A DNA stretch of 32,000 nt, taken from positions 1,440,001 through 1,472,000 of the forward strand of contig OY759724.1 in NCBI GenBank assembly GCA_963662715.1, read 5' to 3'. This DNA comes from Candidatus Omnitrophota bacterium (GTDB taxonomy: Bacteria > Omnitrophota > Gorgyraeia > Zapsychrales > JANLHA01). Positions 7,209 through 31,772 of this stretch are shown piece by piece; within the stretch, counting starts at the first letter, position 1, and every line of letters begins with the position of its first letter. A program made the translations under genes and the position numbers. The notes below the pieces were generated by a model, which saw nothing but the letters and a program-made list of their open reading frames with translations, was not told the origin of the DNA and ran no database searches.

Positions 7209-7217
7209 AAGAGCCTT

Positions 7218-12362: not shown

Positions 12363-12602
12363 ATGATTAAACTATTTGATAAAGAAATCGGCGCTGACTT
12401 GGGTTTTATCTCAGAAGAACAGCTGAAATTTCTGGCCGATCAACTGGAGGAGGAATCCCCGGATGACACGGATTATTATTTCAATTCGGCGACGATAGAT
12501 TTATTGGCGGAGCGGGGCGCTGATGAAGAGTTGCTGGCAAAGCTTCGCCAGGCGTTAGGCTCAAAAGAGGGTGTCGAAATTCGCTGGGAGAGGGAGGAAT
12601 AA
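12363..12602 (+). CDS. small acidic hypothetical protein
   Basis: The product is 79 aa from the ATG at 12363, with SD TAGGAGGGA 4 nt upstream. It is highly acidic (EEQLKFLADQLEEESPDDTDYYF). The TTG-initiated extension to 12264 is rejected. Confidence 0.55.
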   Translation: MIKLFDKEIGADLGFISEEQLKFLADQLEEESPDDTDYYFNSATIDLLAERGADEELLAKLRQALGSKEGVEIRWEREE

Positions 12603-12637
12603 ATCCGGTATTTCCTGTCGGATGCTCTCTGAAATAA

Positions 12638-13330: not shown

Positions 13331-13401
13331 TTCCGGGAGCAGGGTGAAAGGATCAGATCGGATTTGTGCGCGCTGCTGAATATAAACCAGAAAGGTTGAT
13401 T

Positions 13402-14067
13402 ATGAAAAAAGCTTTATTGATTATCATGATTTTTTTTGTGGCGGCGTGCTCGCAGAGGGATGACAAGGCAAAAAAAGAATTGTACCAAGAAACCCGTTCG
13501 ACCAGTGAAGTTTTTACCCTGTTGCTGGATTATTATAGAATGCATCATCCGGAGATCGCCGAAAGCCTTAATCCCCCGGTGGATCAAATGCAGCTAGACA
13601 AACTCGAAAAGCTGATCGGCAGGAAGCTGCCCCCGGATTTCCGTTCCTTATACCTGCTCGCTGACGGACAGAAGGAAAAGACGCCGCCGTTTTTTCCTGA
13701 CGGCTATGTGTTTTTTTCATTGACCGATCTGGAAATTGAATGGAAAGCCCTGAAGGACACCCATTCCGCAAGATCCGATTTCCATATGGGAGGGATGTCT
13801 CCCGGCCGGGTCAGGGATTACTGGTGGCATCCTATGTGGGTGCCTTTTGCCAAGACATCCTACGGTGATTATCTTTGTCTGGACCTTTTTCCCACGAAAC
13901 GCGGCCGGATCGGTCAGGTTATTCAATTTCTGCAAAATAGTGTGGAAAGAGAATGTCTGGGGTTGAGCGTGACCGATTTTCTGGGAGAATACGAAACAAA
14001 ACTGAGCTCAGGGGAATATTACTTCAACTCTGAATACGGTTTTTTTGTTCCCAAAGAGAAGAAATGA
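13402..14067 (+). CDS. SMI1/KNR4 (SUKH-1) family lipoprotein
   Basis: The product is 221 aa from the ATG at 13402. It has a lipobox, MKKALLIIMIFFVAAC. SMI1/KNR4-type blocks include LDKLEKLIGRKLPPDFRSLYLLADGQ and WVPFAKTSYGDYLCLDL. Confidence 0.8.
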   Translation: MKKALLIIMIFFVAACSQRDDKAKKELYQETRSTSEVFTLLLDYYRMHHPEIAESLNPPVDQMQLDKLEKLIGRKLPPDFRSLYLLADGQKEKTPPFFPDGYVFFSLTDLEIEWKALKDTHSARSDFHMGGMSPGRVRDYWWHPMWVPFAKTSYGDYLCLDLFPTKRGRIGQVIQFLQNSVERECLGLSVTDFLGEYETKLSSGEYYFNSEYGFFVPKEKK

Positions 14068-14748: not shown

Positions 14749-15576
14749 GTGACATCCAAATTGTCTAAACCGTTTTTTTTAACGTCCTATATAGCGGGGG
14801 GAGGGATAACCCATTTGCTGTCCTTTTTGATGTTGATTGCCAGCAAAAAAGATGTTGCTTTCGTCCTGCTGCTGATTTCTTTTGTCTTTTTGGTTTATTT
14901 AACGGTTGTCAGCTGTATTCTTTGGTCTAAGTCCTGGAGCTTCATCCAGGACGGCCATGCCCGGACAACACCAGGCAGGGCGATCGGCTTTATGTTTATT
15001 CCGTTCTTCAGTTTTTACTGGCTCTTTCAGCTGATTTACGGTTTTGCCAAGGACTTTAATGCTTATGTGGACCGCTATAATGCCCCGACAAAAAAACTGT
15101 CAGAGCCTCTTTTTTTGACGATCTGCATTATGCTGCTGGTCGGTGTTTTCATGAATCTGGTCCCGGGCATCGGCATTTTTTATTCTTTTGCCGTTTATAT
15201 TGTCATGATATTTCTTGTTGTTCAGCTGATCGATGCCGTGAACCAGCTTCCCGACCAGGCGGAACAATTTTCTTCTGATGTCCTTTTGCCGCAGGAAAAG
15301 GCTCCGGGGTGTTCGGACAATAAATTCGCCGGCGTCATTGCCATTCTTTTATCGGCCATTGCTCTTTTGCACGAAATGGTTTTCTTTACAGACATATTTC
15401 TGTCTCCCTTTGGCCGAATGATATTAGGAGTTTTGGCCTTATTGAACGGGGGCGTGGTTATATTTTTAGCGACCCGCTGCAGACATGCGGTATTAAAGGT
15501 TTTAGGAATCTGCGTTCCTGTTCTTGTGATTCTTGTTCACCTGCTGCGATGGATGACGAGACCTTTTCCTTTCTGA
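14749..15576 (+). CDS. polytopic membrane protein (unknown family)
   Basis: The product is 275 aa with a GTG start 4 nt after GGAGGAG. It has at least 6 hydrophobic segments and a conserved-looking loop, GRAIGFMFIPFFSFYWLFQLIYGF. Confidence 0.6.
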   Translation: MTSKLSKPFFLTSYIAGGGITHLLSFLMLIASKKDVAFVLLLISFVFLVYLTVVSCILWSKSWSFIQDGHARTTPGRAIGFMFIPFFSFYWLFQLIYGFAKDFNAYVDRYNAPTKKLSEPLFLTICIMLLVGVFMNLVPGIGIFYSFAVYIVMIFLVVQLIDAVNQLPDQAEQFSSDVLLPQEKAPGCSDNKFAGVIAILLSAIALLHEMVFFTDIFLSPFGRMILGVLALLNGGVVIFLATRCRHAVLKVLGICVPVLVILVHLLRWMTRPFPF

Positions 15577-16368: not shown

Positions 16369-18210
16369 GTGGCAGTAAATCTCAAAAGAATTTTCCGCCG
16401 GGTTTCCTATGGACATCATGCTTTTATTTTTTTTGTTCTTTTGGTCCTGTGCTTGACCGCCCTGTCGGTGTCCGGTGTTTTAAGGCTTGAATTTACGAAT
16501 CGGGATGACCCGGTCTATTTATTGGAGAACACATCTGTCCGCTCTTTTTCTTGGCCAAATCTTCGCAGGATTTTTTCTGAAACGATCTACAAAGCCTATT
16601 CGCCGTTGAGCACGTTGTCTTTCGCCGCCGAATATCATTTTTTTAAATACATCCCTTTTTATTATCATCTTGACAATTTGCTTTTGCACGTGGGCGTCAC
16701 CGCGTGGGTGATGCTTTTTGCGCGAACTTTAGGTGTGAGCCGACGGGCATCTCTGTTGGCCGGGCTTTTGTTCGGGATCCATCCATTGCATGTGGAGCCC
16801 GTGGCCTGGGTCGCCGCCCGAAAAAATGTTCTTTACGCCCTTTTTTATGTGCCGGCTCTCTGCGCCTACTCTGATTATCTTGCGGGCTTCGGACATCCGG
16901 AACGCCGGACAGCCCGCAGAAAAACAATGTATGCCTTAACGATATTCTTGGCATTGTTAAGCATTCTTGCCGAAGCGATGGCCTTGACGCTGCCGTTGGT
17001 TTTTTTGCTTTTGGACTGGTATCATCGACGTCCCTGGTCTAAAAGACTGCTGCTGGAGAAAATTCCCCATCTTTGTGTCGTGGCGCCCGTCGCGCTAATA
17101 ACATATTTTCCCCGGATTATGGATCCGGGCCGGTATTTTTCGGAAGCGATGCTGTTATTCTGGGCGGCGACATTTTATCTTAAAAAATTTTTATTCCCCT
17201 GGCCCTTGTTGCCGCATTATCCGGTTCCGGCCCCGATGCATTTTTTTCCCGGGGAATATTTGACGGCTACCCTTTTAGTCCTTGTTCTGGCTTATCTCCT
17301 GTGCCGGTTCCGTCGCAGGCGGTTGTTTGTTTTTGCTGTTTTGTTTTATGCGGCCACTGTTTTTTTTCTCCTGAAAGCTGATAATCGTGCGGATGCGGGC
17401 ATCGTTGCCGACAGATATATGTATATCCCCAGCGTAGGCTTTTGTTGTCTTGCGGCTGCCTGGTTTGATCAATTGTTGAACTCCCGTGGACGGCGCAGGC
17501 CGCTTGTGATTTGTTTCCTGATCATGATTTACTCATCCTTGGCCATGCAGACATATTTTCAGGTCCGGGTTTGGCGAAACAGCCTGACTCTTTGGAGCCA
17601 TGCCCTCCGTTTTTGGCCGGACAATGCCCTCTTTTGGCTTAATCGGGGAAGCGGTTTGTCGCAACAGGAGCGTTATCCGGAAGCATTGTCGGATTATCAG
17701 CATGCGTTATCCTTGAACCCTGAACTGGGCAAGGCCTATTATAATATGGCTTATATTTATTATCTCCAGGAGCAGGACATGGATGCTTTGGAGGTGCTCG
17801 AAAAAGAACTTAAGATCAATGACCGCGACATTGACGGTTATTTTTTAAAAGGGAATATTCTGCAGCGGAACAAGGCTTTGTTGGCCTCCATTGACACCTA
17901 TACTCATATTTTAACCATTGACCCGACGCATGTGCTGGCGTGGAACAACCGGGCTATCGCACATGCCAAACTCGGTCACGATCAACAGGCCTTGGAGGGG
18001 TTCACTCAGGCTTTGCGGCTGGATCCTATGTGCGGCGACTGTTATCTCAGCCGGGGCAATTTTTACCTGAACAAGAAAGAATATTATCTCGCGTTACAGA
18101 ATTATGATCAGGCCTTAAAAGTCAATCCGCAAGACGGCAGAGTATATTTTTTAAAAGCCGTTGTTTATAAGGAGATGAACCGCATGCGGAAAGCTGGCGG
18201 TAATTATTAG
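16369..18210 (+). CDS. GT-C fold (PMT/TMTC-like) membrane glycosyltransferase with C-terminal TPR repeats
   Basis: The product is 613 aa with a GTG start 7 nt after AAGGAGG. It has roughly 10 TM segments and an acidic first-loop motif (FTNRDDPVYLLEN). The C-terminal 200 aa or so are tandem TPR units (ALSDYQHALSLNPELGKAYYNMAYIY...). Confidence 0.8.
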   Translation: MAVNLKRIFRRVSYGHHAFIFFVLLVLCLTALSVSGVLRLEFTNRDDPVYLLENTSVRSFSWPNLRRIFSETIYKAYSPLSTLSFAAEYHFFKYIPFYYHLDNLLLHVGVTAWVMLFARTLGVSRRASLLAGLLFGIHPLHVEPVAWVAARKNVLYALFYVPALCAYSDYLAGFGHPERRTARRKTMYALTIFLALLSILAEAMALTLPLVFLLLDWYHRRPWSKRLLLEKIPHLCVVAPVALITYFPRIMDPGRYFSEAMLLFWAATFYLKKFLFPWPLLPHYPVPAPMHFFPGEYLTATLLVLVLAYLLCRFRRRRLFVFAVLFYAATVFFLLKADNRADAGIVADRYMYIPSVGFCCLAAAWFDQLLNSRGRRRPLVICFLIMIYSSLAMQTYFQVRVWRNSLTLWSHALRFWPDNALFWLNRGSGLSQQERYPEALSDYQHALSLNPELGKAYYNMAYIYYLQEQDMDALEVLEKELKINDRDIDGYFLKGNILQRNKALLASIDTYTHILTIDPTHVLAWNNRAIAHAKLGHDQQALEGFTQALRLDPMCGDCYLSRGNFYLNKKEYYLALQNYDQALKVNPQDGRVYFLKAVVYKEMNRMRKAGGNY

Positions 18211-18250: not shown

Positions 18251-18616
18251 TCAAAAAGGCCGTTTCTGCAAAAGGATTTTGCTGGCGATAAACCAAATGG
18301 TCAGGCCACTTAATAGTAAGATGGTCCAGAATTTAGCTGACTTGACAAAACGGAAGGAGCCGTAATCAGAGATAGGTTCCGGCTGCACTTCTCCCATCAA
18401 TTCTCCATATTGATAGTAATATTCTTCGATAACCTTGCCTGTTTTATCAAATATCTGTTCAATGCCGTGTTTTTTTCCTTTTTCATACGAGACTTTGGAC
18501 TTCAGTTCCCCGGTTTCATAATATGTCATGTGTTCCTTTGGGCTGGAATGGCTTTGACCATAGGAAGAACCCGGCCATAAGACCAGAAGAATCAACAAGA
18601 AAACAGTTTTTGTCAT
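18251..18616 (-). CDS. MORN-repeat-variant (YwqK-like) protein with a signal peptide and a C-terminal TM anchor
   Basis: The product is 121 aa from the ATG at 18616, with GGAGAA SD upstream on the minus strand. It has a signal peptide (MTKTVFLLILLVLWPGSSYG), MORN-variant units (YYETGELKSKVSYEKGKKHGIEQIFDKTGKV) and a C-terminal TM helix (FWTILLLSGLTIWFIA). Confidence 0.7.
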   Translation of the reverse strand: MTKTVFLLILLVLWPGSSYGQSHSSPKEHMTYYETGELKSKVSYEKGKKHGIEQIFDKTGKVIEEYYYQYGELMGEVQPEPISDYGSFRFVKSAKFWTILLLSGLTIWFIASKILLQKRPF

Positions 18617-18751
18617 ATGAGTCGTTCTCCTGTTTTTTTGTCCTTTCACGACGTTCCGCTGTCCTTTGTCCTTGGATTCCTGCGGATATGCTTAAGGGGA
18701 TGAACAACGTTTCCTGCGTGTAGCGAGAAGGCCCGGCATTCCGGGGGTGTT

Positions 18752-19279
18752 TTAAAACGCCCCCCAGTCCTGATCCCCCGGGATGTAATACGAGGGGCAG
18801 ATAAACCGGAAAAGCTGTGCGAACCTTCTTGCTTTTGCTGAATCGTTATCGCTTTGCGTTTTGATTTCTGCTAAGGATGAAGCCGCAACTTGCGAGAAAT
18901 ACTCTTCAGTCGCTTTGTTCCGGGCTTCTTCGTCAGGATACAGAGAGCGTATCTGGGCTAATTCGCCGACGTCAAGCCATATCCCTCCGCATTGAGCGCA
19001 TTCGTCCAGTTCAACGCTTTTTTGAATGCTGAAATAATGCTTCATCATAATGATGTCTTGGCACCGGGGGCATTTTCTCTTGGCAGAATAATCGACCTTG
19101 ATGCTGCCGTCCCGGGAAATGTTCAGCAATTGTTCTCCGGCATGTTCGTGCGGTTCATCAACTTTTTCCAGTTCGAAATTGTCAAACCACACCCCGCCGC
19201 AGCCGCCCTCACAGACATCCAGGGCCAAATCTCCAATTTTGATTTCTTTTAAATTGTTCTGACATGCGGGACAAATCAT
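18752..19279 (-). CDS. double zinc-ribbon protein (zf-TFIIB-type, PF13453-like), paralog of 10054..10443
   Basis: The product is 175 aa with SD AAAGGAG. It has two intact units, CPAC...CEGGCGGVWFDNFELEKV and CPRC...CAQCGGIWLDVGELAQI, plus a C-terminal extension of about 70 aa. Confidence 0.8.
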   Translation of the reverse strand: MICPACQNNLKEIKIGDLALDVCEGGCGGVWFDNFELEKVDEPHEHAGEQLLNISRDGSIKVDYSAKRKCPRCQDIIMMKHYFSIQKSVELDECAQCGGIWLDVGELAQIRSLYPDEEARNKATEEYFSQVAASSLAEIKTQSDNDSAKARRFAQLFRFICPSYYIPGDQDWGAF

Positions 19280-19534: not shown

Positions 19535-22500
19535 ATGAAAAGATATTCTAAGAATATTACATGGATATTTTCGTTCAGCTTGGTTTTTGTCTTGTTCTTC
19601 TCCGGGGCCCCGGAAGCCAAAACCAACGGCGCGAGCTTAACCCAAAAAGTCGAGACTCTTTTAAGAAAATATGAGGATCTTCGGGAACAGAATAAAAGCC
19701 TGAAAGAAGATCTGGAGCGGGCCAATGAATTGGCGACGAAATATAAAGGTAAACTCATTGATGCGGAAGACTCTCTTCTGGAATTGCAGAGACAGATGCA
19801 AAACCAGAGCGAGGAGACAAAAGGGGGGCAGGATGCCCGGCAGGAAAAGTTGAAGAAGGAGCTGGATCAGGTCCGTCAGGAAGCCGGGGAATATGAAAAA
19901 CAGCTTTCCGAGAAAAAATCCCTCCTGAAAGACTTGCAGGCGAAAATTCAGAAACAGGCGGAACAGCTTGAAGGGGCCCGGACTGAATTGGAAGAGCAGA
20001 AAAAACAATTGAGCCAAAAGAAATCCGGAGCGGAAGACCTGGAGCAGGTCATTGCCAAATTGCGGGATGAGAATCAAAGACTCAAGGAGGATATTGAGGA
20101 AAGCCGAAAGACCATGAGAGACATCAAGACGTCTTTCAAAGAGGATGAGTCGTCTTTAAAGGAATCTTTGGAGAAAGAATTGCGTGAGCTTAAACAGGAA
20201 GTGCAGATTAGAGGGGCCTTTGTCAGAGACGGGGAGGAACAGATTGAATCTTTAAAGGCTGAAAAAACGCAATTGATGGAAAACATAAAAACGCTGGAAG
20301 AAAAAGTCGATGATTTGTCGGGTCGCAGGGACCGAAAAGAGGAGTCCGTAGCCAGAAAAATTGAAAAAGTCCGGCAGCCTTTGGAGGAGAAAATAAATGA
20401 GCTGCAAACGCAGCTGGAGGATTTGAAAAAAACGGAGCCGCAAAAAATTGAGGAAGCACAAAAGCCTTTGAATGAAAAGATAAAAGCTCTTACAAATGAA
20501 AATGTTTCTTTGCGAAAATCCGTGAAGGATGAAGTCCGGGCCGCCCGGGAGCCTTTAGAGGAAGATATTAAAGAGTTGCGGGGCCAGCTTAAAGAGGCGC
20601 AGGAACAAATGAAAGAGCAGGCTTTGCAGAGCGATAAAGCGGATGCCGAACAGGTTCAGGAATGGCAGGAAAAGCTGCGGGCAGCGGAAGAGTCCGGAGA
20701 AGAAAAAGAGCAGGAGGCCCGGATTTTAAAAGAGCAAGTGGATCAGGTGAAAAAACAACTGGCGGGTTTGGAAGAAGAGAATCAGACGTTGAGGGAAGAG
20801 TCTGAGTCGTTCAAGAAAGACCTGAAGAAGGAAAGGGAGTTGGCGGAAAAAGATCTGGAAGCGACGAAGTCTTCCTTGCAGGAGAAAATTGACGATCTGC
20901 AGCAGGAATTGAAGACTTCCGGGAAGAAGAAAACAGAGAAGCTTTTGAGACAGCAGGAAGACCTTGAGCGGGAGAAACTTGCTTTAGAAGAACAGATTCA
21001 AACAATAGAAAAAGCTGTCCCGGGGAAAATAGAAGAGGCTAAACAGCCTTTACAGGAGAAGATTGATTCTTTACAGGAAGCCTTAAAGGAAGCGCGCCGT
21101 TCCAAGGATGAAAAAGCAGCTCAGAAGGAAGAATCTTTGCGGGATGAGATATCCGAGTTAAGGGAACAGTTGAAACAGGCCAATAAAATCACGGCAGAAA
21201 AAGTTGAGGCGGCAAAGGCTTTATTACTGGATCAAGTTGCTGCTTTAGAACAGCAGTTGGAGGATCAGAAAGCCAGGCTTCCCGAGAAAATAGAGGAAGC
21301 CAAGCGCGAAGAGCAGGAAGAAATCGTGATGTTGGAAGCCCGCATTCGAGAAAAGGAACAGGAATTGTCCGCGCAGGAAGAAGCTATAAAGAATAAGTAT
21401 GAAAAGAAGTTTAAGTCCCAAGAGAAAGAGTTGAATCAGCTGAAAGTGAACGTCACGGAAGAGCAGGCTGAAAAGAGGAAAGCGGAGGTGGAGATTGAAC
21501 GATTGAGCCGGGAACTTAAAAGCCTTCAGAAGAGCGAAAATTCTCATCAGAAGGAACTGGCTTCTTTACAGGACCGGTTGAAAAGGCAGGACGCCCGGTC
21601 TGATCAGCTCGTCGAAGACAAGACAGCGAATTACCGGGTCCGTATTTCTGACCTGGAAGAGGAATTAAAGAAGGTTCGGGAGTCCGCTCAGCTGCAGGTC
21701 GATGAAGCTACGCAGGTTAAAGAAAATGAAATTGAGAAGTTGACCCGGAAAATTGAAAGCATTGAAAGCTCTATCCCGGAGAAGATCGCAAGAGCCAAAC
21801 AGCCTTTGGAAGAAGAAATTAAAGAGCTTAATAAAAAAATCAGACTTGATAAGAATTCCAAAAAGGAAGACCTTCAGAAGGCTCAGGAACCGCTGGAAGA
21901 AAAAATAAAAGATTTAGAAACCCGGATTGAAGAACAAGAGGCAGAATGGCAAGCCCGGGTCGAAGGCGCTAAAGAGCCGCTCTTGGAGCAGGTACGGGAT
22001 CTGGAGGCCAGGCTGAAGGAGAAGGACAGCGAGGTTGCCGGCCGGGTTGATAAAGCCCGGGAGCCGCTTCTGGAACAGGTGCGGGATTTGGAGGCCAGGC
22101 TGAAGGAGAAGGACAGTGAGGTTGCCGGCCGGGTCGATAAAGTCCAAGAGCCGCTTCTGGAACAGGTACGGGATCTGGAGGCCAGGCTGAAGGAGAAGGA
22201 CAGTGAGGTTGCCGGCCGGATCGATAAAGCCCGGGAACCGCTTTTGGAGAAGGTTCAGGATCTGGAGGCCAGGCTGAAGGAGAAGGACAGTGAGGTTGCC
22301 GGCCGGATCGATAAAGCCCGGGAACCGCTTTTGGAGAAGGTTCAGGATCTGGAGGCCAGGCTGAAGGAGAAGGACAGCGAGGTTGCCGGCCGGATCGAGT
22401 CTGTTAAAACGCCTCTGGAAGACAAGATTGCGGCTTTGAAAGAAGAATTGAAAAGTGTGCGGCAAGAAGGAGAAGACCGTTTAAAGGAAGACCAAAAAGA

Positions 22501-25500
22501 TAAAAAAGAAGAAATAGAAAAGGTAAGGCAGGAGTTTAAAGAGTATAAGAACAGGGTGTCGGAAAAAATCAGCAAAGCCAAGGAACCGCTGGAAGAGAAA
22601 ATTTTGCAGCTGGAGGACCGGCTTAAAGAGCAAAAAGAAGAAGGAGCCCGGCAGGTCGAAGAAGCTCAGGCCGTGTTAAGACAGGAGATAGGAAAGCTGG
22701 AAGCTGAGCTGAAGGAAAAGGATGCCGGTTTGACAGTCGGTCTTGAGGAAGCGAAAGAACCTTTGGTCGGACAGATTCAGGCCCTTGAGGAGAAATTGAA
22801 AGAAAAAGATACCGTCATGGCTCAAAGAATTGAGGAGGAGAAAGCCGCTTTTCAGGAAAAAATTGCCGTTCTGCAGGAAGAGTTAAGAACGGCGCGGGCG
22901 GAGGCAGAGGTCCGTTTGAAGGAGGAACAGGGGAAGAGCGCGGCGGAGATTGAAAAGGTTCAGCAGGAATTAAGAGAATATAAAGATAAAGTCTCGGAAA
23001 AGATTGCCAGAGCCAAGGAGCCTTTGCAGGACAAAATAGAAAAATTGAAAGAAGATCTTAAGGAAGCTAAAAGCAGACGCAGTACAGCTTTGCAGGATGC
23101 TCAGGCTCCTTTGGAGGAAAAAATCAGGGACTTGGAAGAGCAGCTGAAAGAGCAGGAAAAAAAGTGGGCGGAGAAAGCGGAAGAAGCCAGGCAGCCGCTT
23201 GTCGAACAGGTGCAGGTTCTTGAAGAAAAAATAAAAGAGAAAGAATCCGGAATCGAACAGCAGATTGAGGATGCTAAAGTTCCTTTATATGATGAGCTTG
23301 CCGCGGTTAAAGAAGAGCTGCAGACGGTACGGGCAGACCACGAAGAGCGTTTGAAAGAGGCCGCGCAGGAAAAATCAGAGGAGTTGAGAAAATTGCAGGA
23401 AGAGCTGGACGGGTATAAGAATAGCGTTGCAGACAAGATCGCGGAGGCTAAAAAACCTCTGGAAGAGAGAATTGCCGAATTAGAGCAGGATTTTAAGACG
23501 GCACAGGAAAAACATGAGGGTGTTTTACAGGAAGCCCAAAAACCCTGGGAGGAGAAAGTGCTGAACTTGGAGTCCCGGATAAAAGAACGGGATGAAGAGT
23601 GGGAGGAAAAAGTGGCCGAGTCCCAGGAGGCGTTGTTAAAACAGATAAAGTCATTGGAAACAGATTTAAGACTGAAGGGATCGAAGATTGCCGAGAAGAT
23701 AAAACTTGCCAAGGCACCTTTGGAAGAGGAAATCCTGTCATTGGAACAGGCCCTGAAAGATAAAGATAAGGAATTAGAAAAGAAGATTGAGGAGGCGAAA
23801 TTCCCTCTCGAGATTAAGATCAGGGGGCTGGTGCAGAAACTGGATGATTTTGAGGCCAGCATCCCGGGCGTGGTGCGGAAATCCCGGAGACCGTTGGAGG
23901 CCAAAATTGTTGACATGAAAGAGGAAATGGAAACCCTCCAAAATTCTATTCAGGAGAAAATCGCGGAGGCCAAAGTTCCTTTGGAGAAAGATAATGCGCA
24001 ATTGCGGGACAAAGTGCAGGAAATCCAGTTATCCGTTGCGGAAAAGGTCGCCAAAGCTAAAGAGTCCTTGGAGGATGATAATCAGCGTCTTAAGCAGGAG
24101 CTTCAGGAGCAGGAACAATCCATGGCCGAGAAGATTGCTTCGGCCAGACAGCCTTTGGAAGAGAAGATTTCCGCTCAACAGGAGGAAATGAAGGAACTCA
24201 AGAATTCTATCTCAACAAGAATTGAGGAAGCAAAAACCTCCCTGCAGGAGAAGATTGATTATTTGCTGGAAAAGATGAAGACGGATGAAACTTCCTTTAA
24301 AGAAGAGTTGAAAGCCGCTCAGGAGGCGACCCGGCAAGGCAAGGAGGACGTTCGCGGGCCTTTGGAAAATGAAATCCAACAATTGAAGTCGGAAATAAAA
24401 GAGTCAGGGGTGTTGATTAAAGAACAGGAGAAAACGATTAAGCAGATAACGAAAGAGAAGGACGATCTGCTGAGAGAACTTAATATCGCTGAGGATAAGC
24501 AGAATAAAATGAATGAGCTTGTTGACCGGTCCAAGGAAGAACAGCGGCAGTTACAGGCGGATATTCCTGAAAAAGTTCAGGAAGCCAAGGAGCCTCTTTT
24601 GGAAAAAATCCGGCAGCTGGAGGTTAAGATCGATGAGATAAACAGGGAGACAGCGGCGAAGATCGAGCAGGCAAAACAGCCTTTGCAGGAGCGTGTCGAG
24701 GACCTGAGCGCAAAACTTAAAGAAAAAGACGCGGCTTTGAGCCAGGAAATCTCCAAGGCGAAAGCCCCGTTGGAGAATAAGATCGAAACAGTGAAACAGG
24801 AGATCATAGAGAAGGATCGAAATATTCAAAGCCATCTTAAAGAGAAAGACAATCTCAATAAAGAGCTCGTTGCCGCATTGAAAGAGAATACGTCCTTGAA
24901 TGATTCTGTTATGACTCTTAAGAGAGAACTGCAGGCAGCGCAGGATAAGCTGCAGACGGATGTTTCAGAAACCCGCAGGGGATATGAACAGAAGATCGCG
25001 GATTTGGAGAGCCGTTTGAAAAAAGCCGAAGGCTCGCTCCCGGATCAGATCAATGCCGTAAAAGTTCCCTTGATTGATAAAATTGCCACGCTGGAAGAGA
25101 CCCTGAAAGAGAGGGACGCTAAGGAAGCCCAGCGCATCTCTGAGGTGCGGACGCCTTTAGAAGGGAAAATTCAAAATCTTCAGCAGCAGCTGCAGGAGCG
25201 GGATGCTTCCTTGTCGCAGAAAGTTCAGGAAGCCAAAGCCCCGTTGGAAGCAGAAATTCAGTCTTTAAAAACACAGTTGCAAAGTCACCAGCAGTCTTTG
25301 CCCGAACAGATTCAGGATGTCAGGCGTCCTTTGGAAGAGGAAATCTCTTCATTGAAAACGCTTTTGCGTGAAAACGAAAAGTTTATGTCGCAGCAGGAAT
25401 CTAAAATACAGGATAAGAGTCAGTCCTTGAGCCGGGCTCAAGAGGAGTTGACGAATTTGCAGAAGATGTTGGAGGAGACAAAAACCAAAAAAGATTCGGC

Positions 25501-26455
25501 GGAAAAAGCATTATCAGAAAAAGACAGGACCCTTCCACAGATGATCAAAGAAGCCAAGCAGCCGCTGGAAGAGGAAATAAAAATGTTAAAGCAGCAGTTG
25601 AAGTCTAAGGAGAAAGATTTGCCTCAGCAGATGGCGGAAGTCCGCAGGCCTTTGGAACAAGAGATAAAAGATCTGAAGAAGGAATTGAAAGAGGCTGAAA
25701 GTTCTCTCCCTGGGCAAATGGCGGAAGCGAAAGCCCCTCTCGAGGAGAATATCCGGTCATTGGAAAAAGAGCTTAAACAGGTCCAGGGGGCATTGCCGGA
25801 ACAATTGGCGAAGGCCAAAGAACCGCTTGACCGGGAAATAGCTCAATTGAAACAACAGCTTAAAGATGCGGATAAGGCGGTTAAAATTAAAATTGCGGAA
25901 GCTCGGAAACCACTGGATATCAGGATCAAGGCCTTGGAGGAGGAGCTGAAATCCGTTCAGAAGGATACGAATCAGCAGTTGAACGAGGAAAGAAATCAGC
26001 ATGAGAAAGCCTTAGGCGAAGTTCAGCAGCAGATAAAATCTTTTGAGGACACCGTGCAGAAGAAAGATGCTGAAATGCAGAATTTGTCTAAAGAAGTCGA
26101 TCGCCTGACGATCAGCCTTTCGGCGATGCAGCAGGAGAATATCTTTCTGAATAATGAATTGGATTCATCCAAGAAGTCCATGCAGACGGTTAAAGACGAA
26201 TTGACCCAGAAGAATTCAAAGAAAATAACCGAGCTGGAGGAGAAGGTCCGCTTTTTGATGGAGCTTTTGGATCAGAAAGAAGCTCTTGTCCAGGAGAAGA
26301 CTAAGATATTGCAGGAGAGAGATCAGCAAATTTCAGCGTTGACTCAGGAAGCGGATGAGTTGGCCAAAGATTATTTTTCAATACTTGATAAAAATGTGGC
26401 TTTAAGCGAGAAGGTGGAAAAATTAGAGAAGCAGCTTTCGGGGGCGGCTCGTTAG
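19535..26455 (+). CDS. exported giant (2306 aa) proline-punctuated helical-repeat protein built of 29-residue units
   Basis: The reading frame is uninterrupted for 6.9 kb. A Sec-type signal peptide (MKRYSKNITWIFSFSLVFVLFFSGAPEA) leads into E/K/L/Q-rich, Cys-free sequence. I count about 40 copies of x-P-L-x-E-x-I-x-x-L spaced exactly 29 aa apart. All other ORFs in this span are shadows of the repeat. Confidence 0.9.
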   Translation: MKRYSKNITWIFSFSLVFVLFFSGAPEAKTNGASLTQKVETLLRKYEDLREQNKSLKEDLERANELATKYKGKLIDAEDSLLELQRQMQNQSEETKGGQDARQEKLKKELDQVRQEAGEYEKQLSEKKSLLKDLQAKIQKQAEQLEGARTELEEQKKQLSQKKSGAEDLEQVIAKLRDENQRLKEDIEESRKTMRDIKTSFKEDESSLKESLEKELRELKQEVQIRGAFVRDGEEQIESLKAEKTQLMENIKTLEEKVDDLSGRRDRKEESVARKIEKVRQPLEEKINELQTQLEDLKKTEPQKIEEAQKPLNEKIKALTNENVSLRKSVKDEVRAAREPLEEDIKELRGQLKEAQEQMKEQALQSDKADAEQVQEWQEKLRAAEESGEEKEQEARILKEQVDQVKKQLAGLEEENQTLREESESFKKDLKKERELAEKDLEATKSSLQEKIDDLQQELKTSGKKKTEKLLRQQEDLEREKLALEEQIQTIEKAVPGKIEEAKQPLQEKIDSLQEALKEARRSKDEKAAQKEESLRDEISELREQLKQANKITAEKVEAAKALLLDQVAALEQQLEDQKARLPEKIEEAKREEQEEIVMLEARIREKEQELSAQEEAIKNKYEKKFKSQEKELNQLKVNVTEEQAEKRKAEVEIERLSRELKSLQKSENSHQKELASLQDRLKRQDARSDQLVEDKTANYRVRISDLEEELKKVRESAQLQVDEATQVKENEIEKLTRKIESIESSIPEKIARAKQPLEEEIKELNKKIRLDKNSKKEDLQKAQEPLEEKIKDLETRIEEQEAEWQARVEGAKEPLLEQVRDLEARLKEKDSEVAGRVDKAREPLLEQVRDLEARLKEKDSEVAGRVDKVQEPLLEQVRDLEARLKEKDSEVAGRIDKAREPLLEKVQDLEARLKEKDSEVAGRIDKAREPLLEKVQDLEARLKEKDSEVAGRIESVKTPLEDKIAALKEELKSVRQEGEDRLKEDQKDKKEEIEKVRQEFKEYKNRVSEKISKAKEPLEEKILQLEDRLKEQKEEGARQVEEAQAVLRQEIGKLEAELKEKDAGLTVGLEEAKEPLVGQIQALEEKLKEKDTVMAQRIEEEKAAFQEKIAVLQEELRTARAEAEVRLKEEQGKSAAEIEKVQQELREYKDKVSEKIARAKEPLQDKIEKLKEDLKEAKSRRSTALQDAQAPLEEKIRDLEEQLKEQEKKWAEKAEEARQPLVEQVQVLEEKIKEKESGIEQQIEDAKVPLYDELAAVKEELQTVRADHEERLKEAAQEKSEELRKLQEELDGYKNSVADKIAEAKKPLEERIAELEQDFKTAQEKHEGVLQEAQKPWEEKVLNLESRIKERDEEWEEKVAESQEALLKQIKSLETDLRLKGSKIAEKIKLAKAPLEEEILSLEQALKDKDKELEKKIEEAKFPLEIKIRGLVQKLDDFEASIPGVVRKSRRPLEAKIVDMKEEMETLQNSIQEKIAEAKVPLEKDNAQLRDKVQEIQLSVAEKVAKAKESLEDDNQRLKQELQEQEQSMAEKIASARQPLEEKISAQQEEMKELKNSISTRIEEAKTSLQEKIDYLLEKMKTDETSFKEELKAAQEATRQGKEDVRGPLENEIQQLKSEIKESGVLIKEQEKTIKQITKEKDDLLRELNIAEDKQNKMNELVDRSKEEQRQLQADIPEKVQEAKEPLLEKIRQLEVKIDEINRETAAKIEQAKQPLQERVEDLSAKLKEKDAALSQEISKAKAPLENKIETVKQEIIEKDRNIQSHLKEKDNLNKELVAALKENTSLNDSVMTLKRELQAAQDKLQTDVSETRRGYEQKIADLESRLKKAEGSLPDQINAVKVPLIDKIATLEETLKERDAKEAQRISEVRTPLEGKIQNLQQQLQERDASLSQKVQEAKAPLEAEIQSLKTQLQSHQQSLPEQIQDVRRPLEEEISSLKTLLRENEKFMSQQESKIQDKSQSLSRAQEELTNLQKMLEETKTKKDSAEKALSEKDRTLPQMIKEAKQPLEEEIKMLKQQLKSKEKDLPQQMAEVRRPLEQEIKDLKKELKEAESSLPGQMAEAKAPLEENIRSLEKELKQVQGALPEQLAKAKEPLDREIAQLKQQLKDADKAVKIKIAEARKPLDIRIKALEEELKSVQKDTNQQLNEERNQHEKALGEVQQQIKSFEDTVQKKDAEMQNLSKEVDRLTISLSAMQQENIFLNNELDSSKKSMQTVKDELTQKNSKKITELEEKVRFLMELLDQKEALVQEKTKILQERDQQISALTQEADELAKDYFSILDKNVALSEKVEKLEKQLSGAAR
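21974..22408 (+). repeat. 5 x 87-bp near-identical in-frame tandem repeat (unit EPLLEQVRDLEARLKEKDSEVAGRVDKAR)
   Basis: Copies start at 21974, 22061, 22148, 22235 and 22322. Copies 1 and 2 differ at about 10 of 87 nt. Copies 4 and 5 are identical over the first ~77 nt apart from one synonymous C/T, and copy 5 diverges only at its 3' end. Confidence 0.95.
22394..23698 (+). repeat. 3 x 435-nt (145-aa = 5 x 29) second-order super-repeat, diverged, no indels
   Basis: Units span aa 954..1098, 1099..1243 and 1244..1388. All three align column for column, for example IExxKxPL..., E.RLKE..., EYK..VS/AEKI..AKEPL and AQ.P.EEK. A partial fourth copy (unit positions 59..145) precedes them from aa 751. 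Confidence 0.85.
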
Positions 26456-26488: not shown

Positions 26489-27679
26489 ATGATGTCTCAT
26501 AGATTATTTGCAAAAAAAATAAAGATATTCCTGTTTTTTTTCTTGGGAGTTCTTTTCTTTGAAAAGACCATTCTCCTGTCTCAGGTCTATGGAGAAGAAA
26601 AAGCCTCCCTGCCGCTGGATTCCCGTCATCAAGTCATACAAGATGCTTTGGATTATCAGGAGGAGCTGGACGATATCGTTCAGCATAAAAGAGCAGAAAC
26701 GCCACCTCCGCCTTTTGATCCTCGTGCCGTGATCTCAGAAGATGACCTCCTGCCTGACCGCCTGCCGCAATTCCTTCCGGATGAATTTAGTGCGAACCCC
26801 AGGACGGTTCTGGACCGGGATGAAGTTGTCCGGGAAGCTTTGAATGAAGTAGAAATCGGCCTCGAAACATATGCCATCAGCTACCGAGAGCCGGGGCTCA
26901 TGAAGGATCAGGGGATTCTGAGCGGTTTGTACGGCTCCTATACTTACCGTACCAGGGACAATCAGCAGATTCAGAGTTTTAAAGATGCCTGGAGAGACCG
27001 CTTCAAAATTAACAAATTTATGGCGGAAGGGCGTTTGGCTCGGGGAAAAGTGGATTATGAATCAGACGACAGCGGGACGCTTGACGGGCTGCCGTATTAT
27101 ACCTTTGAACTGCGCGGTCTTTTGGCGTATGAAATGCCCATGATCCCTTCCGGGTGCATCACGCCTTATTTTGGTGTCGGTTTTAGATATTTGAAGGATG
27201 ACAGCGGCGGGAAAACGACAACAACCGGACATTGGTCTTATGACCGGGAGTCCCGATATATTTATATCCCTATCGGTTTAGAGATCACAAAGCAGTTGAA
27301 GAACAAATGGTCTGTCGGGTTGACCTGCGAATATGACATCTTCCTGTTCGGGAAGCAAAAGAGCCATTTGGAAGACGGCGGGGCGTGGATTCTTGATGAC
27401 GGACAGTATTATGCTTTGGATACTTTGGAAAACGACCAGGAAGAAGGGTTTGGTTTAAGGGGGTCTCTAAAAATTATGCGGCAGCATGAAAAATGGGATT
27501 TTGTTTTTGAACCTTTCGTAAGATATTGGAGTTTAAAGGATTCTTTATTAGCACAATGGACTTCTTTGAGCGGCAGTGTCTTGTGGTATTCTGACCCGGC
27601 TTACCGGTATCCCATTTATGGATATGAACCGGAGAACCATACAACGGAGTATGGCTTTCGTCTGGGCGTGAATTATTAA
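26489..27679 (+). CDS. predicted outer-membrane beta-barrel protein with a Pro/acid-rich N-terminal linker
   Basis: The product is 396 aa and starts 33 nt after the giant-gene stop. It has a signal peptide (IKIFLFFFLGVLFFEKTILLSQVYG). An acidic, proline-rich region (ETPPPPFDPRAVISEDDLLPDRLPQFLPDEF) is followed by about 270 aa with alternating-hydrophobic strands, ending in an aromatic residue (YGFRLGVNY). Confidence 0.6.
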   Translation: MMSHRLFAKKIKIFLFFFLGVLFFEKTILLSQVYGEEKASLPLDSRHQVIQDALDYQEELDDIVQHKRAETPPPPFDPRAVISEDDLLPDRLPQFLPDEFSANPRTVLDRDEVVREALNEVEIGLETYAISYREPGLMKDQGILSGLYGSYTYRTRDNQQIQSFKDAWRDRFKINKFMAEGRLARGKVDYESDDSGTLDGLPYYTFELRGLLAYEMPMIPSGCITPYFGVGFRYLKDDSGGKTTTTGHWSYDRESRYIYIPIGLEITKQLKNKWSVGLTCEYDIFLFGKQKSHLEDGGAWILDDGQYYALDTLENDQEEGFGLRGSLKIMRQHEKWDFVFEPFVRYWSLKDSLLAQWTSLSGSVLWYSDPAYRYPIYGYEPENHTTEYGFRLGVNY

Positions 27680-28616: not shown

Positions 28617-28630
28617 GAGGAGTGGGCGAT

Positions 28631-29230
28631 ATGAAACAGAAATCCTGGGTGCTCGATTTTTTGGCTGTTTTTTTTCTGTTGTTTGGCATCCTTTGGCTGG
28701 TGACGATTTACAACCGGTGTCAGGTGATTTCCCCTGAACGGCAAGTTCACTCCGGGTTAAGATATTCTTATTCCCGTATGGGTGTCATGCGGACCGCACG
28801 GAGCCTCGCGTCTTTTTCTTCTCATATCCGGCCGGCGCATATCCTGTATTTCTGGGCCCTGGCATCCATGGAAATGATGTGCAGCCTGCTTTACATTGTC
28901 GGGGGTTTTGCATTATTCAGAAGATATAAGTTCGGGTACAGCTTAAGCCAGTATGCCTTGTGGTTTGACTTGTTGTACAAGATTCTGACGGCGGCCTATA
29001 TGTTTTTAATCGCTGTGCCCCTGCAGTGCCTGTTGAAGAACAGCAACAATATACTGCTCAATTATTACTTGCCGGACCGGAGCGCGTTTTCGGATTTTTC
29101 AGCGTTCTTCTCCGGCCTCAGGTTTTATTATCCGGAAATTAATTTTTCAGTTATTGTTTATTCCATGTATTTTATTTTTGTTTATGCTTTCATCAAGCAA
29201 AGAGTCTGTGAAGTCCGGGAGATGTCATAA
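28631..29230 (+). CDS. polytopic membrane protein (unknown family)
   Basis: The product is 199 aa from the ATG at 28631, 8 nt after AAGAGGAG. It has 4-5 hydrophobic segments. The gene is tightly spaced after guaD. Confidence 0.6.
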   Translation: MKQKSWVLDFLAVFFLLFGILWLVTIYNRCQVISPERQVHSGLRYSYSRMGVMRTARSLASFSSHIRPAHILYFWALASMEMMCSLLYIVGGFALFRRYKFGYSLSQYALWFDLLYKILTAAYMFLIAVPLQCLLKNSNNILLNYYLPDRSAFSDFSAFFSGLRFYYPEINFSVIVYSMYFIFVYAFIKQRVCEVREMS

Positions 29231-29326
29231 CCTTTTTTTATAACATTGCGATTGAGGCTGGCCGGACCGCTTGGACACGCATTTTATTTTTTAAAGATGA
29301 ACGTGACCCTTGCTAAGGAGGTTCCA

Positions 29327-29743
29327 GTGAAAAAGAATATTCTGTTTTTTATTTTTATGTTTATTGTGTCGGGATGCGCCTCGACCGATCCTTATTCTTA
29401 CCGGGAGATTCCGGTGGCTTCGCGGCGTTTCTTAAGCCTTCGACAGATCTACGTCGGAATGACCCGGCAGGAAGTGGCCAGTGTGTTGGGCAGCCAGGTT
29501 ATTGTCGGTTATGAAATACACGATGATACAAGCGACCAGTATTCTCCCATCACGGTTAAGAATCCTTACCGGCAAGAAGAATATGTCAAAGGCAATAAAA
29601 TTTATAATATTGATTATTATTTTGTCGGCATTGACACCGCGGACGGGACCATCTCCGATCAGGAGCTCGCTCCGCTTGTCTTTGTGAAAGATCAACTGAT
29701 GGGATACGGCTGGGACTACCTGAATAAAAAAGTCAAAAACTAG
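29327..29743 (+). CDS. lipoprotein, BamE/SmpA-OmlA-like
   Basis: The product is 138 aa from the GTG at 29327, 5 nt after AAGGAGG. It has a lipobox, ILFFIFMFIVSGC. The block IYVGMTRQEVASVLG is typical of the SmpA/OmlA fold. The upstream extension to 29246 lacks an SD. Confidence 0.6.
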   Translation: MKKNILFFIFMFIVSGCASTDPYSYREIPVASRRFLSLRQIYVGMTRQEVASVLGSQVIVGYEIHDDTSDQYSPITVKNPYRQEEYVKGNKIYNIDYYFVGIDTADGTISDQELAPLVFVKDQLMGYGWDYLNKKVKN

Positions 29744-29944: not shown

Positions 29945-30925
29945 ATGTCGCATAAAAAGTATAAAGATATAGCCGTAAAAAATTTTATCCTGCATTACCA
30001 GCACGAGAGGCCTATCAATTGGGATTTTCATTTTCAGCAGTCAGCCCCGTTAGATTTAGAGATCGGATTCGGTTTGGGCGAGTTTCTTTTGAGCGAGGCG
30101 CAGAAGAACCCGGAACGTAATTTTGTGGGCATTGAACTTGACTGGCAAAGAATAAAAAAAACCTTAAGCAAAATCCGGGTGATCCGCCAATCCCCTGAAC
30201 AGCATTATAACGCAGATAATATCCGGGTTTTGCAAGTTGAGGCCAAGGTGGCTTTGCTGCGTTTGTTTCAGCCTTTGAGCCTTCATCGTGTTTTTTGCCT
30301 TTTCCCTTGCCCGTGGCCCAAGAAGGGGCACGTCAAATACCGGTTGTTTTCTCATTCTTTCTGCCGCCTGGTCAACAGCCGGCTGATTGAGGCCGGTACG
30401 GTGCAGATAGTGACGGATTATGAGCCTCATTTCTTGTGGCTTAAGGAAGAAGTCGTTGATGCAGGTTTTTCGTGGGAAGAGAACATCATCTCTCCGAGAT
30501 TCAATACAAAATTTGAACGAAAATGGCTGTCGGAAGGGCAGAAAGAGTTTTTTGAATTAACCTTGCATAAAGTCCAGCACATTGATATACCGATTCAGGA
30601 GGATATACCCTTGACCGTGTATTTTATTGATCAATTCGATGCCGAAAAATTTCATTTTAATAATGTCTCCGGATGCCCGTCCGTGATTTTGAAGGACTTT
30701 TTATATGATAGCGGCCGGAAAAAAGCCATGGTCCATCTGGTCGTCTCGGAAGAACATATTACTCAACATTTGTGGATTGTGATCGTTCATAGTAAGCGGG
30801 GGTGGTGCGTTGCCCAGGCAGCCGGCCAAACGGTTTTGCCCACGCCGGGGGCGGCCCTGGCGATCCGCATGGTTGCGGACGCCGTACGCCAAAGCGCTGA
30901 CCAGCCGGAGAAAAAGCATGCTTAA
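29945..30925 (+). CDS. trmB: tRNA (guanine46-N7)-methyltransferase TrmB with a C-terminal extension of about 100 aa
   Basis: The product is 326 aa. It has the SAM-binding block LDLEIGFGLGEFLL, then NFVGIEL, then the TrmB signature CLFPCPWPKKGHVKYRL. Sequence beyond about aa 215 has no counterpart in canonical TrmB proteins of 210-240 aa. Confidence 0.9.
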   Translation: MSHKKYKDIAVKNFILHYQHERPINWDFHFQQSAPLDLEIGFGLGEFLLSEAQKNPERNFVGIELDWQRIKKTLSKIRVIRQSPEQHYNADNIRVLQVEAKVALLRLFQPLSLHRVFCLFPCPWPKKGHVKYRLFSHSFCRLVNSRLIEAGTVQIVTDYEPHFLWLKEEVVDAGFSWEENIISPRFNTKFERKWLSEGQKEFFELTLHKVQHIDIPIQEDIPLTVYFIDQFDAEKFHFNNVSGCPSVILKDFLYDSGRKKAMVHLVVSEEHITQHLWIVIVHSKRGWCVAQAAGQTVLPTPGAALAIRMVADAVRQSADQPEKKHA

Positions 30926-31772
30926 AAACTACAGGATATCTGCTCTTAGAAAATGGAAATTTTCCCGTCACCTGTGTCTTTATCTCATTGTTCTCCTCTG
31001 TTGCCCGGCGCCGGTTTTAGCAAAGAAGAAAAAGGGGGCGTACAGCGTAAGCGCGGAGGCGGCGATTTTTTCCAACAGCACGGAAGTTGTCCGTTATTAC
31101 GGGAAGAATGTCCATACACGCGTGCTTCCGGCCAGCACTGTGAAAGTTATGACAGCTTTGCTGGTGTTGGAACGATTGCCTTTAAATAAAGTTGTCAAGG
31201 TCAGTCCGCGGGCAACCTATCCGCAGCCGTCTAAAATTTATGTAAAACCCGGGGAGACCTTCAGGGTCAAAGACCTGCTTTATGCTATCATGCTGAAATC
31301 AGCCAACGATGCGAGCGTTGTTTTAGCCGAAGCCGTGGCTGGAAGCGAAGAGAAATTTGTGCGGCTGATGAACAAAAGGGCCAGGCAGCTGGGGGCCAAA
31401 CATACCCGTTTTGCCAATGCGCATGGTCTGCCCTCCAAGAAAAAACAATATACGACTCCTTATGATATGTATTTGATTTTCCGGGCTGCGCTGAAACATG
31501 ATTTTTTCCGGGAGCTCGTGGCGACCAAATACCGGACAATTTATTCACAGCAGGGCCGAAAAATTTCTCTGAAGACCCATAATAAAATTTTGTTTATGGA
31601 CTGGAAGAGAAAACTGTATGGTAAAACAGGTTATACAAAGGCGGCAAAAGCCTGTTTTGTGGGGTATCTTAAGAAAGGGGAGAGTATCTGTATTATCGCC
31701 ATTTTCGGCTGTTCCCGGAGGTGGACAGACATTAAGCATATTGTGGAGCGTTACGGGCACATTGATCTTTAA
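30918..31772 (+). CDS. D-alanyl-D-alanine carboxypeptidase (peptidase S11, low-MW PBP)
   Basis: The product is 284 aa from the ATG at 30918, with GGAG 7 nt upstream and an 8-nt overlap with the trmB stop. It has a signal peptide and all three PBP motifs: SxxK (ASTVK), SxN (SANDA) and KTG (KTGYT). Confidence 0.88.
   Translation: MLKNYRISALRKWKFSRHLCLYLIVLLCCPAPVLAKKKKGAYSVSAEAAIFSNSTEVVRYYGKNVHTRVLPASTVKVMTALLVLERLPLNKVVKVSPRATYPQPSKIYVKPGETFRVKDLLYAIMLKSANDASVVLAEAVAGSEEKFVRLMNKRARQLGAKHTRFANAHGLPSKKKQYTTPYDMYLIFRAALKHDFFRELVATKYRTIYSQQGRKISLKTHNKILFMDWKRKLYGKTGYTKAAKACFVGYLKKGESICIIAIFGCSRRWTDIKHIVERYGHIDL

Follow-up and report, generated by a model that had tools for sequence, protein, structure and literature searches.

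Scy/FilP proteins (51-residue repeat), crescentin and intermediate-filament-like rods combine heptads with regular stutters, have conserved rod ends and assemble into filaments, and Scy/FilP and crescentin-type proteins are cytoplasmic and carry no signal peptide. In the envelope, Lpp, Thermotoga Omp-alpha and TolA domain II form periplasm-spanning rods of 8–50 nm that are held by lipid, SLH or transmembrane (TM) anchors. SF-assemblin and beta-giardin are segmented coiled-coil rods with a 29-residue repeat made of four heptads plus one skip residue, and the SF-assemblin rods assemble into 2-nm filaments and striated fibres (PMC2119799). Here we analyse a stretch of 32,000 nucleotides (nt) from Candidatus Omnitrophota bacterium (assembly GCA_963662715.1, contig OY759724.1, positions 1,440,001–1,472,000; hereafter, the window), in which by far the longest open reading frame (ORF), 19535–26455 on the + strand, encodes a protein of 2306 amino acids (aa) that joins an N-terminal export signal to arrays of a proline-bearing, 29-residue helical repeat. 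Omnitrophota are an uncultured phylum of ultra-small, probably host-dependent bacteria, the envelope architecture of which is almost unknown.

The gene is complete, with an ATG start, a TAG stop codon (26453–26455) and an uninterrupted 6.9-kb frame. Its product contains no cysteine and few aromatic residues (F 0.9%, Y 0.6% and W 0.3%), and E, K, L and Q make up 53% of it (E+K+R, 38%), the composition that a preliminary description of this DNA had reported. There are 51 prolines, one of which lies in the signal peptide (aa 26) and the other 50 within aa 282–2126, so that both flanks of the rod are free of proline. Residue autocorrelation peaks at a lag of 29 (0.245, against 0.098 ± 0.006 in shuffled sequences), with harmonics at 58, 87, 116 and 145. 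The period is clearest in the main array (aa 728–1597; 21716–24325, +), in which 30 consecutive units stack perfectly in rows of 29 without an insertion or deletion (indel). Within it, exactly 29 units keep register over aa 757–1597, and the motif proline that follows, at aa 1609, is offset by 11 residues. Hydrophobic Fourier power over the main array reaches 24.1 at 3.625 residues per turn, compared with 1.6 for the 99th percentile of shuffles, and is 0.7 at 3.66 residues per turn.

These results uphold much of the preliminary description, which had proposed a peak at 29 residues, an unbroken run of 29 units from aa 757 to 1597 that ends in an 11-residue register break, and a pitch of 29/8 = 3.625 residues per turn; the roughly 40 intact unit starts that it had counted become 38 under the pattern P-[LW]-x3-hydrophobic-x2-hydrophobic. 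Its account of the extent has to be reduced. The repeat is real, but the protein is not made almost entirely of it: about 45–52 units are recognisable in total, or about 57–65% of the protein. Likewise, aa 282–2154 do contain 29-residue blocks but are not a seamless concatenation of them, because the units fall into blocks of 3, 30, 3, 4 and 5, plus a few isolated ones, and proline-poor, heptad-like stretches intervene (aa 369–727, 1598–1686, 1774–1844 and 1961–2009). Besides the main array, unit maps place three units at aa 282–368 (20378–20638, +), three at aa 1687–1773 (24593–24853, +), four at aa 1845–1960 (25067–25414, +) and five at aa 2010–2154 (25562–25996, +), most of this last group having both motif prolines (at unit positions 21 and 1).

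Repetition at the DNA level is confined to 21974–22398 (+), where 87 nt recur 4.9 times with 93% matches and encode five near-identical units (aa 815–959). Three copies of a 145-aa (5 × 29) super-repeat follow at aa 960–1394 (22412–23716, +), visible in the lag-145 peak and in row comparison. The remaining units have a mean pairwise identity of about 30%. Given this divergence and the single DNA-level repeat, yet no indel in 29 units, the period is kept by selection on the exact unit length and not by recent duplication. The near-identical 87-nt units themselves indicate recent unit duplication or gene conversion within an otherwise diverged array, and copy-number variation or the collapse of assemblies is especially likely in their 425-nt stretch.

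The consensus of the main array is PLEEKIxxLExxLKExxxx(V/L/I)(A/P)x(K/R)IxEAKx. In a profile of 38 units, P1 and L2 are present in 100%, followed by E3, E4, K5, I/V6 (97%), L9 (97%) and L/I13 (97%); the second half is marked by K14, E15, a hydrophobic residue at position 20 (71%), A/P21, I/V/L24 (95%), A27 (79%) and K/R28. Positions 2, 6, 9, 13 and 24 are 95–100% hydrophobic, and the core positions 2, 6, 9, 13, (16), 20, 24 and 27 are spaced in steps of 4, 3, 4, 3, 4, 4, 3 and 4. The unit is therefore one heptad plus two hendecads (7 + 11 + 11), which equals four heptads plus one skip residue spread over two stutters, and these two stutters fall at its two proline positions, 1 and 21. On a helical wheel of 3.625 residues per turn, the hydrophobic seam spans about 75–100 degrees and takes up 7–8 of the 29 residues, with K/R at ±56–80 degrees from the seam and E/D at 120–180 degrees. 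The proline-free segments on either side, an N-terminal rod (aa 29–281; 19619–20377, +) and a C-terminal tail (aa 2155–2306; 25997–26452, +), have a hydrophobic period of 3.54 (measured over aa 31–281 and aa 2155–2306), nearer to the heptad, in agreement with their earlier description as coiled-coil-like.

We modelled parts of the protein with AlphaFold2. Five units (aa 1163–1307), supplied as an alignment of non-overlapping in-register blocks, were predicted to form one uninterrupted helix that the prolines do not break (predicted local distance difference test (pLDDT) score, 94.6), and the last 160 residues were predicted to form a single helix with the same score of 94.6. Together with the sequence, the models support the earlier proposal of an all-helical, proline-punctuated protein. 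A Foldseek search of the single-helix model against the PDB gave no matches, as is expected for a lone helix.

The protein is not an orphan. Our searches make it an uncharacterised member of a rare, small family of Omnitrophota and related uncultured PVC-group bacteria, with syntenic orthologues. Whole-protein homology search retrieved only three weak relatives, all with signal peptides, in which the motif (I/L)PxxIxxAKxPLEEKIxxL recurs at spacings of 78, 71 or 50 residues. We built a 42-column profile from 88 instances of the motif and scored it against all 1.84 billion representative proteins, among which 84 matched at E ≤ 1e-3 and 24 at E ≤ 1e-10; the profile had no match in an indexed search, and the relatives surfaced in the exhaustive search of representatives. 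Among the matched proteins that we inspected, the longest has 4143 aa, and a signal peptide is present in most of the full-length ones. Family members are pure rods of about 1,300–4,400 aa, and a Pfam scan of nine large ones found no globular domain. The window protein has the same layout, an N-terminal signal peptide and then a protein without a globular domain that carries 38 copies of the motif. Relatives are labelled at source as 'hypothetical protein [Candidatus Omnitrophota bacterium]', 'Exonuclease SbcC' or 'chromosome segregation ATPase'. The last two labels, on P0011, P0012 and P0086, look like automatic coiled-coil mis-annotations, because these proteins have signal peptides and no ATPase domains, and we correct them here.

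The window protein itself had no exact entry in the collections searched, and a single-protein scan of GTDB representative genome contigs gave no match. The pattern AKxPLEEKI, which is strict and under-samples the family, had eight matches over GTDB species genomes, seven of them true loci (four from Candidatus Omnitrophota and three from 'uncultured Planctomycetales' metagenome-assembled genomes), and in a metagenome scan it found three loci only. The eighth match (L008) was rejected, because there the motif occurs by chance where an acetyltransferase-like ORF ends. Dense 29-residue arrays occur in L011 (at least 3056 aa, with 77 motifs and 60 spacings of exactly 29), L012 (2045 aa, 49 motifs), L006 (about 2100 aa), L009 (1282 aa) and L007 (1290 aa); the syntenic orthologues measure 1282–2340 aa or more and contain 29-residue arrays like those of the window protein.

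The distance from one motif to the next mostly follows a rule of 29 + 7n residues. Among 496 such spacings in the family, 29 is the most frequent (200), followed by 78 (95), 71 (22) and then 58, 107, 156 and 127. Of the 233 spacings of up to 200 residues that are not multiples of 29, 61% are congruent to 1 modulo 7 and most of the others to 2 or 3 (chi-square p = 3e-94), indicating that each motif adds exactly one residue, a skip, to a heptad-phased rod. By this arithmetic, the motif appears to be a proline-bearing 'skip module' embedded in heptads and to belong to the grammar of coiled coils. This arrangement is carried furthest in the window protein and its closest orthologues, in which the spacer heptads are gone and a skip comes every 29 residues, moving the mean periodicity from about 3.5 to 3.625. 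Export, a conserved proline-bearing skip module and quantised 29 + 7n spacings are what is new here relative to known non-heptad segmented coiled-coil rods. We found no description of this rod family in the literature on Omnitrophota coiled-coil, periplasmic or giant proteins, on Velamenicoccus and the OP3 LiM proteome, or on proline-punctuated helices.

Two metagenome contigs, L014 and L015, share nearly the whole neighbourhood of the window, and their neighbouring genes are 52–83% identical to those of the window. Their giant gene is collinear with that of the window and 43% identical, and in L014 it lies at the same chromosomal position. Its unit blocks in L014 (3, 2, 18 + 11, 4, 5 and 5, compared with 3, 1, 28, 1, 3, 4 and 5 in the window) begin with the same three-unit array, at aa 273–331. 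Most gaps between the two proteins equal whole modules (29 residues in five cases and 58 in one), and the smaller ones measure 1–26 residues. Collinear orthologues at the same locus in independent assemblies establish that the giant gene is real and not an assembly chimera, the artefact against which the preliminary description had cautioned. The L014 orthologue (3237–10336) is called in pieces of 2228 + 111 aa and that of L015 (1–6192) in pieces of 593 + 55 + 1183 + 158 aa, with unknown residues; the split calls may reflect genuine disruption or, the gene being repetitive, mistakes of sequencing or assembly.

The C-terminal 150 or so residues are the best-conserved part of the window protein. 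The tail is 36–42% identical to those of L007, L009 and L006 (E = 1e-25 to 2e-27), compared with about 25% for the rest of the protein. It contains the motifs QQENIFLNNEL and LAKDYFxILDxNVxL, the latter of which marks an order-level subclade that includes the window protein, and a tail profile search matched solely Omnitrophota-type fragments. At the mature N terminus, close orthologues have in common a weaker head motif, LTxKV(E/D)xLLxKY(E/D)xL. Neither tail nor head matched anything above threshold in Pfam, NCBIfam or the PDB. Such conservation would be expected if the ends serve to link one rod to the next or to engage fixed partners.

The N terminus, MKRYSKNITWIFSFSLVFVLFFSGAPEA (aa 1–28; 19535–19618, +), runs from basic residues through 15 hydrophobic ones to a small-residue c-region, the n/h/c layout of a Sec signal. 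An N-terminal signal peptide is present in every full-length relative that we aligned, mostly with a clean AxA-type cleavage site, and the signal peptide noticed earlier in the window protein is well supported by this comparison. Because the protein has no cysteine, it is not a lipoprotein. It is most likely exported by a Sec-type signal, with cleavage predicted after PEA (before K) or after GA (before P).

The surroundings of the gene face the envelope in part. The orthologous loci with dense arrays share the gene order of the window: the giant gene, (TadA), a BamE/DUF3192-like lipoprotein, TrmB and a D,D-carboxypeptidase, the last being 65–69% identical to that of the window. A giant gene upstream of the BamE-like lipoprotein, TrmB and D,D-carboxypeptidase genes also marks the order-level subclade that includes the window protein. 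The BamE/DUF3192-like lipoprotein (ORF 29246–29743, +; true start likely near 29297) scores 23.3 bits against PF04355 (cut-off 23.2), has the lipobox IVSGC and is the gene found most consistently just downstream of the orthologues (L012, L009, L006, L007, L014 and L015); it may be a functional partner or mere conserved gene order. A second candidate partner of the rod is encoded 33 nt past the giant gene (26489–27679, +). This 396-aa protein has a hydrophobic N terminus, an acidic, proline-rich linker (PPPPFDP) and a C terminus (...YGFRLGVNY) that resembles an outer-membrane beta-signal, and is probably an outer-membrane beta-barrel. It directly follows the giant gene in L014 and L015 too (69–76% identity). 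Orthologous loci at greater distance lack it, and it is unlike the genes downstream of distant relatives and has no Pfam, NCBIfam or PDB match above threshold. The periplasm-facing neighbours (BamE-like lipoprotein and D,D-carboxypeptidase) and the probable barrel are hints, not proof, of an envelope association.

Every Pfam and NCBIfam match to the protein is below its curated cut-off, and searches of Pfam, NCBIfam and the PDB revealed no full-length homology to a characterised family, so that, as the preliminary description had it, no such family claims the protein. A 29-residue repeat has a precedent in the segmented coiled coils of SF-assemblin and beta-giardin (PMC2119799). The window protein shares with these the repeat of four heptads plus a skip, but it scores only 17.1 bits against SF-assemblin PF06705 (cut-off 30.6, E = 0.0038), and no homology is shown. 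SF-assemblin is eukaryotic, cytoplasmic and microtubule-associated, with about 280 aa, a proline-rich non-helical head and a 253-residue rod; the window protein is bacterial, exported and eight times longer, with a signal peptide, a helical head and a proline inside each unit. Scy/FilP and crescentin differ from it in being unexported, in repeat length and in lacking the proline-bearing module. Sub-threshold Filament and Rod_CreS matches occur in the window protein and its relatives, but in the window protein they reach only 19.7 bits for PF00038 (cut-off 40) and 18.1 for Rod_CreS (cut-off 100), and a signal peptide is present. Like Lpp, Omp-alpha and TolA domain II, it would be an exported alpha-helical rod of a diderm envelope; unlike them, it would measure about 340 nm and has no anchor motif. 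Trimeric autotransporters and secreted fibrous adhesins have anchor, secretion or head domains, none of which was found by Pfam or NCBIfam, and the C terminus is a helix that ends in ...KQLSGAAR. The giant ORFs described from Omnitrophota encode multi-domain proteins of 10,000–147,000 aa, mostly with TM helices (PMC10066038; bioRxiv 10.64898/2026.06.07.730766; bioRxiv 10.1101/2023.11.21.568195). The rod family resembles them in phylum, large size, poor annotation and envelope or surface targeting and differs in being a pure rod of about 1,300–4,400 aa; coiled coils have 0 occurrences in PMC10066038 and bioRxiv 10.64898/2026.06.07.730766.

From the observed sequence architecture, family, synteny and continuous-helix models, we infer a location and function for the protein: on balance, it is probably a Sec-exported, all-helical, segmented coiled-coil rod that forms envelope-associated fibres. 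The rod would be built on heptad logic, with the module (I/L)-P-x2-I-x2-A-K-x-P-L-E-E-K-I-x2-L inserting one skip residue. A module every four heptads gives a mean of 29/8 = 3.625 residues per turn, so that the Leu/Ile/Val/Ala seam would run almost straight. The rod would then be stiff and free of supercoiling, with an axial repeat of 4.3 nm, a super-repeat of 21.5 nm and its core flanked by the near-heptad head and the conserved tail motif. Two or more chains would pair along the seam, and part of the core, where Leu alternates with beta-branched Ile/Val, points to a parallel dimer. Such a rod would be about 0.34 µm long (2278 mature residues × 0.1485 nm). Outside the cytoplasmic membrane, such rods might use their conserved ends to build fibres or a lattice, located on the cell surface or else in the periplasm beneath the outer membrane. 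At about 340 nm, the rod is too long to stand across the periplasm and would have to run along the envelope or extend outwards from the cell.

A bolder form of this idea, which we think possible but not likely, is an extracytoplasmic skeleton: straight, unsupercoiled coiled-coil cables would join by their conserved ends into a striated lattice with repeats of 4.3 and 21.5 nm. In ultra-small Omnitrophota cells, this lattice would occupy the periplasm or lie beneath the outer membrane, and it would fix or stabilise the shape of the cell and the spacing of its envelope. If true, this would be an intermediate-filament-like system outside the cytoplasmic membrane, and the proline skip module a previously undescribed coiled-coil building block.

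Several observations weigh against a coiled-coil fibre in the envelope. A proline every 29 residues, often with another at position 21, is unusual inside coiled coils, and basic residues beside the seam with acidic ones opposite are also the pattern of class A lipid-binding helices. The pairing of chains is deduced from the seam, and the AlphaFold2 models, being of monomers, speak for helicity and not for an oligomeric state. The only PDB sequence matches of note, though marginal, are apolipoproteins. The predicted cleavage site is atypical, and no outer-membrane secretion or anchoring signal is recognisable in the protein by Pfam or NCBIfam, so that periplasm and surface cannot be told apart. 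Finally, no partner gene conserved across the whole family was found in the loci compared.

Some of these points would suit an apolipoprotein-like scaffold, in which the amphipathic, proline-punctuated helices would rest on a membrane surface or encircle lipid, be it as a coat on a leaflet in the periplasm, as a vesicle stabiliser or as a means for a host-dependent nanobacterium to scavenge host lipid. Like apolipoproteins A-I, A-IV and E and apolipophorin III, the protein is a tandem of proline-punctuated amphipathic helices with P-L-x-E-E-hydrophobic starts (its P-L-E-E-K-I starts resemble the 22-residue repeats of apoA-I), a boundary proline at unit position 1 in 38 units and basic residues at the polar–nonpolar boundary, and like the exchangeable apolipoproteins it is E/K/L/Q-rich and exported. 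PF01442 (Apolipoprotein) is its top Pfam match (E = 3e-21, nine stretches), and 15 of 16 PDB sequence matches at E ≤ 1, including the best (E = 9e-4), are apoA-I, apoA-IV, apoE or apolipophorin III. However, the Pfam score of 76.4 bits, from a biased and repetitive query, stays below the gathering cut-off of 90; the period is 29 and not the 11 or 22 residues (3.67 residues per turn) of apolipoproteins; the hydrophobic face is narrow and poor in aromatics; the helix is modelled as unbroken at the prolines; and the near-heptad flanks and the motif spacings of relatives, congruent to 1 modulo 7, follow coiled-coil grammar. The apolipoprotein analogy drawn in the preliminary description thus holds for proline punctuation and class A charges and fails on scores, seam width and heptad arithmetic. 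Given the bacterial origin, the likeness points to convergence at most, and we consider a lipid scaffold, in any of these variants, distinctly unlikely. A rod that passes through the outer membrane and reaches as far as about 0.3 µm from the cell, serving an epibiotic cell as an adhesin or spacer for contact with its host, would fit the biology proposed for Omnitrophota, which are suggested to be ultra-small and host-dependent and to use very large envelope or surface proteins as adhesins or coat (PMC10066038; bioRxiv 10.64898/2026.06.07.730766). By simple arithmetic the rod exceeds the normal width of the periplasm, the probable outer-membrane barrel gene 33 nt downstream is conserved within the clade, and the giant gene evolves fast (43% identity, against 52–83% for its neighbours). 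Such a surface tether is nevertheless rather doubtful, because neither the protein nor the nine large relatives scanned show an autotransporter, T1SS, T5SS or T9SS signal, an adhesin head or a globular domain, the downstream barrel is missing from most orthologous loci, and the consistent neighbours are periplasm-facing.

Two further readings can be set aside with more confidence. A stable monomeric helix of the single-alpha-helix (ER/K) type, acting as a ruler, would accord with the E+K+R content of 38% and the isolated straight helix of the models, but AlphaFold2 monomer runs yield lone helices for any coiled coil, and a Leu/Ile/Val seam at 95–100% in five positions with strong 3.625 periodicity is foreign to such domains; we regard this as very improbable. 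Hardly credible is an artefact, whether a chimera assembled from collapsed repeats or a mis-annotated SMC/Rad50/SbcC-type ATPase. NCBIfam SMC models do match (E = 5e-36), relatives are labelled as SbcC or chromosome segregation ATPase, and the near-identical 87-nt × 4.9 repeat could mis-assemble. Against this, the SMC matches cover coiled-coil arms only, at 124 bits compared with a cut-off of 567, and the protein has a signal peptide; in independent assemblies the locus holds a collinear orthologue of similar length, and except within one 425-nt stretch the DNA of the repeats has diverged too far for them to collapse. We rejected an SMC/Rad50/SbcC identity for want of an ATPase head, hinge or zinc hook, with scores of 124 against 567 and 48 against 1087 bits. 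The seam, the scores and the collinear orthologues effectively exclude the single-helix, ATPase and artefact readings.

The envelope-associated coiled-coil rod brings with it a testable sequence rule, in which a Pro-x8-Pro-Leu module equals one skip and, when placed every four heptads, should cancel supercoiling and straighten the rod. Because prolines are normally excluded from coiled coils, the skip module is of interest to coiled-coil structural biology and protein design. For Omnitrophota, the family flags a conserved, fast-evolving exported fibrous protein. Their cells are 0.2–0.3 µm wide, so that a 0.34-µm rod is about as long as a cell is wide, and either placement of the rod, along the envelope or extending outwards, would be new cell biology.

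Distant members of the family have other surroundings. The low-GC P0001 and a 3428-aa protein of L010 share two downstream membrane/coiled-coil genes (E = 1e-15 to 1e-20), located at L004 19789–22239 and L010 12588–14995. The window does not have them, and subclades may therefore have different partners. At 16369–18210 (+), the window encodes a 613-aa protein whose N-terminal half passes the membrane several times and whose C-terminal part carries TPR repeats. A homologue of it (E = 5e-20; L001 14602–16383, −) lies two genes from the distant family member P0002, and a YceI gene is near both; this likeness could be weak synteny or coincidence.

Closer to the giant gene, two divergent upstream genes (18251–18649 and 18752–19279, both −) encode a MORN-repeat protein and one that has two zinc ribbons of the TFIIB type; L014 also has the pair upstream, its zinc-ribbon protein being 78% identical. 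Downstream, the TrmB (29945–30925, +) and D,D-carboxypeptidase (30810–31772, +) ORFs overlap by 116 nt, and because homologues of the carboxypeptidase have 278–284 aa, its translation probably begins at a codon downstream of the TTG given for the ORF. The ORFs at 28622–29230 and 14749–15576 matched nothing above threshold in Pfam, NCBIfam or the PDB, and Rfam and transfer RNA scans of the window were empty. Unrelated accessory genes at 11026–14067 (+) encode an M48 peptidase, a DNA alkylation repair protein and a SUKH-1 (SMI1/KNR4) protein, a group that often serves as toxin immunity.

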